Made by a program: the position numbers and the translations under genes
NCBI GenBank assembly: GCA_951406725.2
Contig: OX597827.1
Coordinates: forward strand, 5,146,001-5,210,000
DNA length: 64,000 nt
Reading direction: 5' to 3'
From: Octopus vulgaris
Taxonomy: Eukaryota
Notes under the pieces: generated by a model
Told to the model about the DNA's origin: nothing
Seen by the model: the letters and a program-made list of their open reading frames with translations, nothing else
Databases searched by the model: none
In this document: piece by piece, positions 19,920 through 55,914 of the stretch
Position numbering within the stretch: position 1 is the stretch's first letter
How the letters are laid out: the number at the start of each line of letters is the position of its first letter

Positions 19920-20444
19920 TATTTACAGAAATTACAATGTTAGTAAGAGACGTGCATTGACCAACAATGCAAACAGTCCCATATAAATATATAAATAAGC
20001 GAACTTAGATGTAAGGGAGAAAACTCAGTATGTATGAACTATTGCTTCGTTGTTAAGGTAGGAAGTTTCTTTTGCAACGTGCTTATACATAAATCGATTT
20101 CTTTCTACTAGACACAAGAAAAAGTATTTTTCTAAGAGTAGAGCTATTGTTATGAGAAACAATATCGATTTTTAATTCTGACAGAAGACCATACACATAT
20201 TAGGGCTATGGAATATAGTTTATAAGACGCAGTATATGACTGGTACTTATTTTATCATCTTACCTCCTAAAAGATGTAGGTGAAATTGACGTCTGATAGG
20301 AACGAACTCAGAACGATAGTATCTAAACACCACGAAGAGGTTTTGTCTACCTCATAGCTGGTTCTACCTTTTCAGACCCTTATAAAGTTCATTATTTACA
20401 TTATTTACATTTGACGGATATTTGTCCAAATCGTGTTTGTTGTT

Positions 20445-20490
20445 AACACAACGTTTCGGCTGATATACCCTCCAGCCTTCATCAGGTGTC
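20445..20490 (-). ncRNA. Minimal type I hammerhead ribozyme, canonical core
   Basis: Minus strand reads GACAC-CTGATGA-A-GGCTG(GAGGGTATAT)CAGCC-GAAACGTT-GTGTT, with stems I and II intact and an ACGT palindrome. Confidence 0.85.
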
Positions 20491-20587
20491 CTGGGGGAAA
20501 TTTGGAACATGGGTTCTCATTCCTAAGGTATTTTACGACGTTATTATTATTGTTGTTGTTCTTGTTGTTATCGATTCCAGGCAGCGA

Positions 20588-20646
<59 letters not shown>

Positions 20647-20696
20647 GCATCGAAAAATACCTTAGGAATGAGAATCCAGGCTCGAAATTTCCCCAA

Positions 20697-20740
20697 GATA
20701 CCTGATGAAGGCTGGAGGGTATATCAGCCGAAACGTGTTA
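20697..20740 (+). ncRNA. Hammerhead motif, degenerate (3-nt deletion at the cleavage site)
   Basis: GATAC-CTGATGA-A-GGCTG(...)CAGCC-GAAAC-GTGTT. It is the inverted homolog of 20445-20490. Confidence 0.7.
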
Positions 20741-21249
20741 ACAACAAACAAGATGAGGACAAATATCTGTCAAATGTAAATAATGTAAATAATTCCTCAT
20801 AAATATAGAACTGTATTACCTCATAAAGTTTTATAAAAGTCACGGCACTCTAAATAAAAGAAGGGCAGGCAACTATGCTGTGATTAAACAAAGAATGCTA
20901 CAACTTCATATTGACTTAAAATTTGAGAAGGAATTCCTTGGGAATACAGAGACATAAACGGTGATGACATTAAAGATTTTGGAAGAAATGTGTGTTTGAA
21001 TCTTCTTCATGTGTATCTGTGTTTAGTTTAAAGAGATACATCTTATATCTTTTCCTTGTGTCAATCATTGGACTGTGAACACAGTAGCTGTCCCTTGAAC
21101 TGGTTACTCAAACAAAGCAAGCCCAATATTTACCTTTTTTAAGTTTAGTACTTACTTTATCAGTCTCTTTTACCAAGCCACTAAGTTACAGGGACATAAG
21201 CAAACTAACACTGGTTGTCAGGTGGTAGTGGTGGAGGGACAACCCCTCT

Positions 21250-21324: not shown

Positions 21325-22705
21325 TAGGGAGAGTTTATGAAAAAAACAAAAGACGAAGACAGGTGGTGTAGAAAACAAACAGATGTATAAGTATAATGCT
21401 CAGGAATTGAAAAAGTCTTTTATGTTTCGAGCCTATGCTCTTCTACAGAAAGGGACACAGAAAGAAACAAGGAGAGAAAAAAAAAATGTATGTAGTGGCT
21501 ACCGATCTATCATGGCAGCTGCTGGACAGAAGGGTCACACAGGAGAGCAAAGAAGTAGGGGAGATAACAAAGTAAAGGTGATCCCCAAAACGAGGGTGTG
21601 TGTGTGTGTAAGAAAATACATATGTGCGTATGAAATAGGGCTGGTGGTCTTGACGTGTGCGTGTATGTATGTGTAGGTGTGAAAATGTGGGGATGGAAAT
21701 TGGTCAGGGGTGGTGTGTTGTGATGTGATGTGTAGTGTGGTGTGATGTTGTTGGGAGGAGGGGGAGGCGAGAGTGGAGAAAGCATGGGGGTGTGTGGGTT
21801 AGGCTGATGGTTGGGGTATGTGGGTAGGCAGAGCATGGGGGTAGAGGTGGGGTTTGTGGGTAGGCAGTGGGTGGGGTATGTGAGAGAGGGTGTAAGGGAT
21901 GGGATGGGGTGGAATGTGAAAGATAGAGAAGGTGGAGTAGGAATGTGTAGGGGTGGGGTGGGCTTATGGGGGAGTGTTGACGATGAAGGAGGAAGGGGAA
22001 GGTGGGTATGAGAGAAGAGAGAAAGGGAGTAGGGGTGAAGAGAAGTAGGAGTAGTAGGAGTGAAGAGAAGTAGGAGTCAGAGCAAGAGAGGAGAGGTGGG
22101 TGGGAGGAAGTAGGAGGGAGGGGGAGAGAGGCAAGAGGAGGAGGTTAGATGAAGAGGGAAGGAGAGTTGAGCCCATATGGCATAAAAGAGCAAAGAGAGA
22201 AGATTAATCCCAGTTCACAGCGCAAACTGGAGTCCAGATGGCCTCTGTGCAAGGACAATCCGAACATGGACAGGTGTTGCAAAGAGTGACCGGTAGAGCG
22301 GAAATGGCGTGAGACCGGGGTGTCATTGCCGAGGCAGATGTCCCGGAAGTGTTCCGTGAACCGGTCAGCCAAGCAGCGTCTTGTTTGTCCAATGTACAGA
22401 GAATGGCAGAGAGAGCAGGAGATGCAATAGATGATATTGGTACAAGTGCAGGTGAAGGAGTCAGTGATGTGATAGTGTCGATGATGGGTGCCGGTGAGGT
22501 GGGCGGTGTTGGAGAGGTAAGGGCAAGTGCAGCAGCATGGGCGGGAGCAGGGGAACAAGCCAGGTTGGGAGGTAGAGTTGGGGAAGAAGCTGTGGACCAA
22601 GAGGTCTCGTAGGTTGTGGGCTCATTTGAAGGAGGGGAGGGGTTGGTTAGGGAAGATGTGTGAAGTGGATGGGTCAGACTGGAGATGCCAGAAAGTTCGG
22701 ACCAA
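21325..22705 (-). mobile_element. Truncated copy of a related Neptune-type PLE (GIY-YIG domain, 3' UTR, terminal repeat)
   Basis: ORF 22145-22600 (SQPGLFPCSRPCCCTCPY...IIYCISCSLCHSLYIGQTRR...GLNSPSLFI) aligns with 34350-34804. The terminal repeat with HHR at 21325-21515 ends next to (TA)n. Confidence 0.92.
21417..21452 (-). ncRNA. Minimal hammerhead motif (core variant CUGUAGA)
   Basis: Minus strand reads CTTT-CTGTAGA-A-GAGC(ATAG)GCTC-GAAACATA-AAAG. The ACGT palindrome has decayed to ACAT. Confidence 0.65.
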
Positions 22706-32364: not shown

Positions 32365-34804
32365 CTCCTCCACCACCCTTCTCCCCTCCCGATAGGCTCC
32401 ATCCACCCACACCTAACCCCACTGCCCCTCCCTACAACCCCTTCTCCCCTCCCTACAACCCCTTCTCCCCTCCCGTTAGGCTCCATCCACCTACACCTAA
32501 CCCTACTGCCCCGCCCCAACCACCCCCCACACACCTCTCCAATCCCTCCCCCTCAGACCTCCACGAGACCTACCACCCCTCCTACTTCTATTCCATCCAC
32601 CCCTTCTCCACTTCCGTCTGTTGTTACCATTCCCCCCGATCTTCCCCTCTCTGCGGCTGAACGCTCCGTCCTTGGTAGGGGTCTGCGTTTCATCCCCCTC
32701 ACTCCATCCTGTAAGGAATTCCAGACGCGAGTTGATGTCCACAGCTTTGTGCGCCGTGTCCGGTTGGGTGTGCATTACCACGACTCGCCACCCACACCCA
32801 ACGAAGAGGACGACTGCTTCACTGGCCTGGGCCACCGACCATCCCCGTGGACGCCTGCCCCTGGCCAGATCCTAGCAGTGGATCTTTTCGCGGGCGCTTG
32901 TCAGCGTGCATTGGAGCGGTTCAACTTCTCCAGGCGCCAACGCCGCCTCAACATCTCCCCGGCTGAGCTCTTGGCTCTTCGTTCCCTCCAACGGCGCGCT
33001 GACATTATCATCAAACCGGCTGACAAGGGTGGAGCTGTAGTGGTGTGGCGCGCGGACCTCTATAGGGCCGAGGCTTTCCGCCAACTCAATGACACCTCCT
33101 TCTATTCCCCTCTGCCCTCTAACCCCACACGTAGCTACCAACAGACGGTATCCTCTACTGTCCAAGACCTCATCTCGTCCTCCCGTCTCCCCCGCACCGC
33201 ATCCAACCTAATTGTGCGAACCCCACGTACCTCCACCATTTACTTCCTCCCCAAAATCCACAAACCCAACAACCCTGGCCGCCCCATCGTCTCCGCCTGT
33301 AACTGCCCCACGGAGCTCATCTCTAAATACCTCGACCGTGTCCTTGCCCCCTAGTGGCATCTCTTCCCTCCCACATCCACGATACCAACCATGCTCTCCG
33401 GCTTTTCAACTCTTTCTCCTTTCCTCCCGGCTCCTCCAAAATCCTTTTTACTATGGACATCCAAAGCCTCTATACTGTTATCCCTCACCACGAAGGACTG
33501 CAGGCCCTTCGACACTTTCTTGACCTCCGCTCTAACCCTGTACCTGACACCTCCACACTCATTCGTCTGGCCGAACTTGTCCTTACTCTGAACTGCTTCT
33601 CGTTCGCGGGCGAGTTCTACCATCAGGTCTCGGGAGTGGCCATGGGAACGCGAATGGGCCCCAACTATGCGAACCTGTTCGTTGGCTATGTTGAGGCCCA
33701 AATATTCTCTAATTTCACTGGTCCCACTCCTGAACTATATGGTCGTTATATTGACGACATTATCGGTGCCACCTCACTCTCCCGCGAACATCTAGATTCC
33801 TTCCTCTCTTTCGTCCAATCTTTCCATCCAGCCCTCCACTTCACTTCCACTATCTCCAACACCTCTGTCTCCTTCCTCGACATTTCGGTTAGCATTCTTC
33901 ACTCCACTCTTACCACCTCCATTCACTACAAACACACAGACTCACACTCATACCTCAACTTCTCTTCCTCCCACCCAGAACACACCAAGCTTTCCATCCC
34001 CTATTCCCAATTCCTCCGTCTACGTAGGCTCTGTAGTGACGACCATGACTTTGAGACTCAGTCTCAACGTATGGCTCACCACTTCACCCTACGTGGATAC
34101 CCCCTCACCACTATCCACACCGCCCTTGCCAGAGCACGGTCCGTGGACCGTGTATCTGCTCTCTCTCCCCGAACCCGCCCTGTAGTCTCCCGCCTCCCTT
34201 TTCCCCTCACTTACCACCCCACGACCCTACGTCTCCAACGCACCATTCTTCGAGCTTTCCGTCATCTCCAGTCCGACCCGTCCACTTCACACCTCTTCCC
34301 TAACCGACCCCTCCCCTCTTTCAAACGAGCCCACAACCTTCGGGACCTTTTGGTCCATAGCTCCTTCCCTGACCCTACCTCCCAACCCGGCTAGTTCCCC
34401 TGCTCCCGCCCACATTGCCGCACTTGCCCTTACATCTCCAACACCACCCGCCTCACTAGCACCCACCATCGACCCTATCCCATCATCCACTCCTTCACCT
34501 GCACCTCCAGCAATATTATCTATTGCATCTCTTGCTCTCTCTGCAATTCCTTGTACATCGGACAAACGGGACGCCGCTTGGCTGACCGGTTCGCGGAACA
34601 CCTTCGTGACATCCACCTTGCGAACGACACACCGGTCTCACGCCATTTCCGCTCAACCGGTCACTCCTTGCAACACCTATCTGTGTTCGGTTTGTCCTTA
34701 CACAGAGGCCATCCGGATTCCCGTTTGCGCCGTGAACAGGAATTAATCTTCTCTCTTCGCTCTTATACGCCATTCGGTCTCAACTCTCCCCCCTCCTCAT
34801 CTAA
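32365..34804 (+). pseudogene. PLE reverse transcriptase / GIY-YIG endonuclease ORF with three lesions
   Basis: The frame is open from 32365 through ERSVLGRGLRFIP to 33354. Lesions are a -1 frameshift in a C run at ~33350 (VLAP/LVASL), an in-frame TAG at 34392-34394 (TTG/Leu in the 22 kb copy) and a -1 shift in a C run at ~34790 just before the natural TAA (34802-34804; GLNSPSLFI* in the 22 kb copy). Confidence 0.92.
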
Positions 34805-35395
34805 CCTCACCCCCTCCTCACCTATCCTTTCTCCCCCGACCCCTACTTCTTCAGTCCTTCATCCTTTCACCCCTACTCCCCTTCCCTTCTTCCCTCTTTC
34901 TCCCTCCCTCTTCCCCTTCCCTCTGCTCCCTCACTCCCTCTCTCCCCTTCTCTCTCCCCCTCTCCCTCTTTCCTCCTTCATCCCCCTCATCCCCTTCCTT
35001 CTCCCCCATCCTCTCCTCTCCCCCTTCTCCTCCCCTCCTCTTCCCCTCCCCTTCTCTCCCCCTCTTCTCTCCCTCCCCCTCTTCTCCCCCTCCCCCTCTT
35101 CTCCTCACTACACTACATGACTTTACACATCACATCACATATGATGTGCCATACTAATACACACACCAACTAATACCTACTAATACGTACTAATACATAC
35201 TAGTACATACTAATACTTACACCAACCCTATACATACACACGTCCAGACCCCGCATACGCACTTATACTCTCTCACACACACACACACACACCTATACAT
35301 ACCAATACGTACTAATACATACTAATACATACTAATACATACACCAACCCCATACATACGCACGTCCAGACCAATCTTACGCACTAATACTCTCT

Positions 35396-55613: not shown

Positions 55614-55748
55614 ATATATATAGTGTAAACAAGAGAGACAGAGAAAGGCTGAAACAAGGAAAATGCCACTTATATTTGAACACTATACAAATATTCTTTT
55701 AAAAAAACTTTTCTTTTAATTTCTCTAAATGTAATTATTTAATCGTTA

Positions 55749-55786
55749 CAGTTGAAAAGGTCTCAAAATGACCGAAACCGGTACTG
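55749..55786 (+). ncRNA. Hammerhead motif with U3-A8 core covariation
   Basis: CAG-TTGAAAA-GGTC(TCAAAAT)GACC-GAAACCGGTA-CTG, with stems I and II, palindrome ACCGGT and a GUA cleavage triplet. Confidence 0.6.
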
Positions 55787-55914
55787 AAATGTTTTTTATA
55801 AAATTATTTTAGCATTTTCTATCTTGACTTGTTTTTTCATATACATATATATATCGGCACTCACATAGACATGTGTGCATGTGTGTGTATAGTTGTGTGA
55901 ATGTGTGTGTGTAT

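Follow-up and report, generated by a model that had tools for sequence, protein, structure and literature searches.

The 64,000-nucleotide stretch of Octopus vulgaris DNA analysed here (the window; contig OX597827.1, positions 5,146,001 to 5,210,000) contains at 20391-20815 what is probably, judged from its sequence, a dead head-to-head pair of terminal repeats (pLTRs) of a Penelope-like element (PLE) that encodes a reverse transcriptase (RT) and a GIY-YIG endonuclease, and whose repeat opens with a tRNA-derived head in which an A and a B box likely form an internal RNA polymerase III (Pol III) promoter. While it is already known that PLE repeats carry minimal hammerheads, occur as inverted pairs and give rise to repeat-only derivatives, the best reading of the present family would be that a PLE captured a tRNA-type promoter and sheds SINE-like copies.

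The locus itself, read from its letters, is a broken head-to-head pair of PLE terminal repeats and not a separate SINE. Both inverted arms described in the earlier note are real: an inverted, 5'-truncated pLTR arm on the minus strand (20391-20570), which runs from family position 238, the tail-less end, back into an (AAT)n-like run, and a plus-strand arm (20571-20814) that aligns with it over about 165 nt. The plus arm starts at head position 55, inside the B box, with a 3' remnant of the tRNA-derived head that is devoid of an A box (20571-20591; family positions 55-75); the B-box remnant recognized there previously, TCGATTCC at 20571, is indeed the 3' part of a B box and continues upstream in other copies. 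The remnant is followed by an (AAT)18 tract (20592-20646, plus strand), a constant component of the pLTR that separates the head from the start codon and varies in length, and by the coding part of the pLTR (20668-20814, plus strand), which comprises the start codon and the first ~50 codons of the PLE open reading frame (ORF), the rest of which is not joined here. The plus arm alone also carries the PLE 'tail' (20794-20814; family positions 239-264 with a 5-nt loss). The view that the locus has no coding sequence therefore holds for the copy at 20391-20815 only, as the stretch from the ATG at 20668 onward is homologous to those first ~50 codons of the PLE ORF. The flanks suggest a possible target-site duplication of 12 bp, with the left copy at 20378-20389 being identical to the right copy at 20819-20830 at 11 of 12 positions. 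As it has no A box and its B box is cut, this copy can serve neither as promoter nor as source, and the locus is one among thousands of dead PLE fragments.

With regard to the hammerhead, the minus arm carries, as had been claimed, the full minimal type I layout (20445-20490, minus strand), with a 5-bp stem I (GACAC/GTGTT), the core CTGATGA at 20485-20479, one unpaired A, a stem II of 5-6 bp, GAAAC, an ACGT palindrome and a GTT site, with the cut predicted after the GUU that ends at 20450. The plus-arm motif (20697-20739) has the 3-nt loss noted before, i.e., it is without GTT at the cleavage site, and is predicted to be inactive. These were the only matches, one per arm, in a hammerhead motif scan of the whole 64-kb window, and Rfam scored neither of them. 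The conserved core, stems I and II, the palindromic stem III remnant and an NUH site are present in the minus arm and in the family majority; predicted folds of the family hammerhead do not display the active form. Loss of the 3 nt at the cleavage site is common in the family (13 of 38 ORF-linked arms and 23 of 112 short arms) and independent of subfamily markers, which suggests recurrent slippage. The proposal that the hammerhead serves as a tail in place of a LINE tail has to be abandoned, as the motif sits within the coding start of the PLE, 85 nt upstream of the 3' end. In sequence layout the ribozyme motif does not differ from the metazoan PLE minimal type I hammerheads described in the accessible parts of Cervera and De la Pena 2014 (PMC4209133), with which it shares the core, the extra base before stem II, the G-C closing pair and the palindromic stem III remnant; the same source describes opposite-strand hammerhead pairs 100-700 bp apart.

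Two observations identify the locus sequence as a PLE pLTR: the repeat ending at family position 264 joins the ORF in frame, a junction present at 135 places in the genome, and the peptide that is read through the hammerhead, from an ATG upstream of it at family position 110, matches the N-terminus of an 847-aa homolog (E 3e-20). The family unit consists of a pLTR, a 2,345-nt ORF body, a 23-nt spacer and another pLTR, and hence is a partial tandem with a repeat before and after the ORF and the ORF start inside the repeat. Each pLTR (about 270 nt) is made up, in this order, of a palindrome (GCCC-AC-GGGC), the tRNA-like head, (AAT)n, the ATG, the hammerhead and a 26-nt tail. One of the first 30 loci (L004) reaches upstream past the head into the ORF, and when 29 other loci were fetched by their ORF end, the family repeat was found after the stop codon in 28, usually in the order stop codon, 23-nt spacer, palindrome, head, (AAT)n and hammerhead; the one exception is broken by another insertion. 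The single ORF to which the pLTR is linked has an RT part and, C-terminally, a GIY-YIG part; its longest frame (569 aa; full-length homologs have 813-855 aa) matches RVT_1, and its C-terminal endonuclease part, in which Pfam misses the domain, aligns with a GIY-YIG-bearing homolog (E 2e-19). From its domain order and motifs the element would be Poseidon-type. A PLE that shares the hammerhead end, which the earlier note had proposed to look for, thus exists in the same genome.

The family is abundant, with 3,634 first-look candidates for the repeat and 3,032 candidate relatives of the ORF; exact probes matched the 2.8-Gb genome 2,705 times (hammerhead 30-mer), 986 times (head 31-mer) and 409 times (31-mer near the ORF end), with 0 matches for the reversed-sequence control of each probe. 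A search of sequencing runs for the family listed no RNA run that contains it. Contigs of four further runs carry the family, with the listed pieces spanning ORF end and head in three, and no head-less relative was found among them. Many copies are internally deleted minis (L276-L345) that consist of a repeat, the first 26-300 nt of the ORF and a second repeat, and several of these jump to the exact first G of the palindrome.

Upstream of the B-box remnant, other genome copies continue into a full tRNA-like head with an A box, as the earlier note had anticipated. In these fuller copies the head is 73 nt long with A and B boxes intact, and both boxes fit the A-box and B-box consensus, which 0 of 20,000 shuffles did; the patterns used for the consensus also fit 33 and 27, respectively, of 35 tRNAs from the same genome. 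Compared to tRNA-Arg genes of its own genome, the head matches at 49 of 73 letters (35 tRNAs sampled, an incomplete set), with a score of 64 vs 34 ± 4 (maximum 49) in 200 shuffles. A likeness to tRNA-Thr was not supported, as a targeted pattern yielded only family copies (21 matches) and the scores of Thr genes were lower than those of Arg genes. Neither in the locus nor in the full head was a tRNA called by ARAGORN or the Rfam tRNA model; since the boxes nevertheless fit the consensus, the head has kept its boxes and lost its cloverleaf. The tRNA-derived A/B-box head that characterizes tRNA-derived SINEs is hence present family-wide, with part of the B box retained in the locus copy, and in the fuller copies it likely acts as an internal Pol III promoter. 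Other A/B-box repeat heads of the genome match it at 47-49 of 73 positions, about as closely as the tRNA genes do. This resemblance is what would be expected if the repeat were an ordinary PLE repeat carrying a passenger, i.e., a SINE head captured long ago, with the accumulation of copy ends described below reflecting a Pol II start or RT stopping or folding back at a hairpin, an explanation that we regard as rather doubtful but serious; the intact A and B boxes in a head that has lost its cloverleaf speak against it.

The ends of copies were examined in the first 90 of the 986 head matches, reduced to 89 by dropping L103, which represents the same insertion as L102; as an exact 31-mer is required, this sample favours young copies, and some of its arms are not independent insertions. 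In agreement with the earlier note, most head-bearing copies (77 of 89) begin at the head, between positions -7 and +15, where a sharp edge lies 13 nt upstream of the A box and the end rate is ~10x that upstream (p 1e-13); 2 start in the spacer and 10 run into the ORF. Continuation into a PLE ORF had been named beforehand as an outcome that would count against a separate non-autonomous SINE/retrozyme hybrid, and this proposal indeed gives way to one in which the unit, with its head, belongs to the autonomous PLE as its terminal repeat. Two subfamilies can be told apart by linked variants at positions 64, 148 and 217; they are about as common among the 151 short arms as among the 56 ORF-linked ones, and no diagnostic base separating short from ORF-linked arms was found in this set, suggesting that short copies track the PLE's own sources; the absence of diagnostic bases would also suit a head that is a passenger.

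An independent PLE-mobilised SINE lineage, with master genes of its own and a sequence that it shares with the PLE, could still be proposed from the ~87% of head-bearing copies that are without ORF sequence, from a reversed loop GT seen only in short arms (11 of 56 vs 0 of 47, p 0.0008) and from the lower divergence of short copies (4.3% vs 5.2%, p 0.04, in a comparison affected by sampling bias). Two GT-loop arms, L139 and L147, have no partner, as if short copies sometimes acted as sources, and are the only such hint. We nevertheless consider such a lineage unlikely, as the linked variants are about equally frequent in short and ORF-linked arms, the ORF-bearing element contains the whole unit with its head, and fold-back within one insertion explains most GT loops. 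The distinct lineage by which a tRNA-derived SINE would be recognized was thus not found among these arms, and the unit appears to be SINE-like at the level of its short copies and not as an independent lineage, the tRNA-type head being the likely explanation for the many SINE-like short copies. A SINE composed of head and AAT tract only was also considered and rejected, since 73 of 89 heads are accompanied by a hammerhead part no more than 1 kb away, and among the remaining 16 several are interrupted by insertions of a LINE or something else. As a separate observation, a zf-RVT-domain LINE or other repeats often interrupt the (AAT)n tract of the repeat (L069, L091, L110, L134 and others); a LINE that targets AAT is a possibility.

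The palindrome is present in 121 distinct arms, of which 53 have the PLE spacer and 68 lack it. In the latter, 20 arms end exactly at the first G of the palindrome (16 after A, some of them after A runs), 37 continue by copying the head backwards, 7 show one T and 4 show at least 2 spacer letters. This clustering and the sharp edge 13 nt before the A box would point to a true RNA 5' end, and the distance from the cluster to the box is that expected for a type 2 promoter, which counts against a passenger head. Spacer and head can, however, fold into a hairpin (-13.5 kcal/mol), which according to this fold could stop RT, and which, like the weak inversion of the head's first 25 nt by the spacer (shuffle p 0.03), favours a passenger; on the other side, the ends cluster beyond the hairpin loop, at one G, with the at least 2 spacer letters being confined to the 4 of 68 short arms mentioned above. 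Palindromic pLTR 5' ends are common in PLE repeats, and PLEs devoid of tRNA heads are known to have them as well as fixed repeat boundaries (accessible parts of PMC3846280), while the Penelope promoter is described as LINE-like and internal (accessible parts of PMC2377424), so that the edge need not be a Pol III start. RNase P-type cutting as a source of the 5' ends was rejected, as the tRNA-like +1 is 6 nt downstream of the edge and neither the acceptor stem nor the T stem pairs. The inverted copy of the head start in the spacer between stop codon and head is seen, e.g., in L047 and L059, and may be a relic of head capture through a fold-back insertion.

With regard to the inverted pairs, an adjacent inverted arm is present in 53 of 89 head-anchored copies, the family has two 3' ends, at about 264 and about 238 (451 arms), and the tail is found on one arm only in 67 of 72 head-to-head pairs. 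Partner arms have fixed outer and scattered inner ends, which indicates that a pair represents two cDNAs primed at the 3' end. The two 3' ends and one-sided tails match PLE descriptions in the accessible parts of PMC11167929 and PMC8557442; for Poseidon_Ac, two internal RT start sites and cutting and extension of both DNA strands have been reported in vitro (Frangieh et al. 2024, PMC11167929, accessible parts). In the scenario that we favour, transcription would begin 13 nt ahead of the A box, with the first G of the palindrome as the first RNA base, the PLE protein would begin reverse transcription at two repeat sites (family positions 264 and 238, as in Poseidon_Ac in vitro) and two cDNAs would be joined in head-to-head orientation. 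A cDNA extended as far as the RNA 5' end would stop there, add A's, or jump or fold back on the palindrome, yielding thousands of SINE-like repeat-only copies. These could derive from short Pol III transcripts, which any intact repeat might produce, or from the long RNA, through internal priming within its 5' repeat. At the locus in the window both cDNAs would have halted early, the B box being the stopping point of one and the AAT run that of the other. The hammerhead would be uncut in the template of these copies and is predicted to need a dimer or protein help. A second accumulation of 5' ends, seen in 16 of about 440 arms (e.g., L287, L293 and L311), lies at family position 218, which is 46 nt short of the 3' end.

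Cleavage by the hammerhead is central to a retrozyme-type cycle, in which tandem transcripts are cut into unit-length circles that are then copied. A retrozyme-like, head-less head-to-tail array of this family does exist (L016, L017, L019, L020 and L024; G000:C2:2.73 Mb), with ~215-nt units of AAT run, hammerhead and tail; in addition, 2 of 70 repeat-ORF junction loci run past the repeat into a previous ORF end, and among 451 arms the interior of the hammerhead (146-179) is poorer in 5' ends than the stretch just 3' of the cut site. In the same 451 arms, by contrast, there is no surplus of ends at the cut site that could be a fossil trace of cleavage, as the end rate just 3' of it (0.0053 per nt) is not above that upstream of the hammerhead (0.0050 per nt), and most arms pass through the cut site uncut. 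The locus, moreover, is inverted and not the direct tandem that defines a non-LTR retrozyme, and no circle-type joint occurs among the joints listed for three raw RNA runs under a related label, whose library type is unsuited to finding one. Together with data on Poseidon_Ac, in which the ORF begins at the hammerhead and insertion in vitro did not need hammerhead cleavage (PMC11167929, accessible parts), this makes such a cycle very improbable here.

Absence of Pol III termination signals was assessed through T4 runs. None is found in the repeat. For the majority ORF body (2,345 nt; depth at least 32), 2.8 are expected under synonymous shuffling and 0 are present (p 0.03), in a post hoc test in which shuffling was out of frame over the first ~400 nt and for which there is no matched head-less control family, as the other hammerhead families found have T-rich strands; an earlier computation gave p 0.02-0.04, and T2, T3 and A, C and G runs of the ORF body are as expected. 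These 2.6 kb without T4 runs count against a mere passenger head and weakly suggest that even the long RNA may be a Pol III product. At six of the 70 repeat-ORF junction loci the upstream repeat passes the AAT tract unbroken; 3 of these six end at the head start, 1 ends inside the head and 2 are those that continue into a previous ORF end. In the three raw RNA runs, reads fall about equally on both strands and there are no sharp molecule starts or ends, in libraries that are poorly suited to, and say little on, short or uncapped RNA. Tentatively, then, it is possible that the autonomous PLE is transcribed end to end (about 2.9 kb) by Pol III from a captured tRNA promoter, with a coding strand free of T4 and an uncapped RNA translated from the ATG behind an (AAT)n leader, and that it gives birth to SINE-like elements.

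To our knowledge, PLE promoters are known from few cases only, and SINEs are described as partners of non-LTR (LINE) elements. If real, a tRNA-type promoter in the repeat of an autonomous PLE would reveal a direct path by which PLEs can give rise to SINEs and would identify a partner for the 'Pol III promoter plus hammerhead' arrangement found in schistosome repeats. It would also offer a simple way to test if Pol III can drive a retroelement that codes for protein; repeat libraries may file short PLE copies as SINEs. A full-text literature search found neither a PLE with a tRNA-derived repeat nor a PLE-mobilised tRNA SINE, with Repbase, Dfam, SINEBase and paper supplements as places that may hold the family, and the accessible parts of PMC13282606, PMC7229834, PMC4758252 and PMC2377424 contain no description of a tRNA-headed PLE repeat.

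As far as the accessible parts of the sources extend, the octopus element resembles Poseidon_Ac (PMC11167929) and Adineta Pen2a (PMC3846280) in having one ORF with RT and C-terminal GIY-YIG that starts in the pLTR and overlaps the hammerhead, two 3' ends defining an optional tail, an inverted 5'-truncated neighbour copy and a 5' palindrome; unlike theirs, its repeat opens with a 73-nt tRNA-derived A/B-box head and (AAT)n, and in those parts of both papers tRNA has 0 mentions. The schistosome Sm-alpha and Sj-alpha repeats, as covered in the accessible portion of a review (PMC6765202), likewise combine, within a single short repeat, a Pol III promoter and a hammerhead downstream of it, but are non-coding and often tandem, whereas the octopus unit is the coding terminal repeat of an autonomous element and occurs in inverted pairs. 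In the TRIMp3 elements Cassandra, Helenus and Ajax, a small-RNA-derived Pol III promoter also lies within the terminal repeat and is proposed to come from SINE insertion into it; by contrast, these are non-autonomous LTR elements, with autonomous partners argued to need Pol II and not expected to share the repeat, while here the autonomous, ORF-bearing PLE itself has the head (Kojima 2024, PMC10886601, accessible parts). Finally, animal non-LTR retrozymes are also short hammerhead repeats from PLE pLTRs, but are defined as direct tandem arrays, and no tRNA head or Pol III promoter is described for them in the accessible text of bioRxiv 10.64898/2026.07.22.740005 and PMC7229834.

The window also holds other hammerhead-like families. 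One, with a different stem II and a T-rich strand, lies ~600 nt from the locus at 21371-21500 (minus strand), with a second copy just before 55640. A third short family at 55640-55855 (plus strand), for which no tRNA head or ORF was found in 25 loci, has 1,116 candidates, with the top copies being 96-98% alike; in its hammerhead-like motif T and A replace the usual C3 and G8, and the match to Rfam HH9 is weak. In addition, a different PLE ORF lies in pieces at 32365-35117 (plus strand), with RVT_1 and GIY-YIG matches and a pyrimidine-rich sense strand, and is only 23-33% like the tRNA-headed octopus PLE family.
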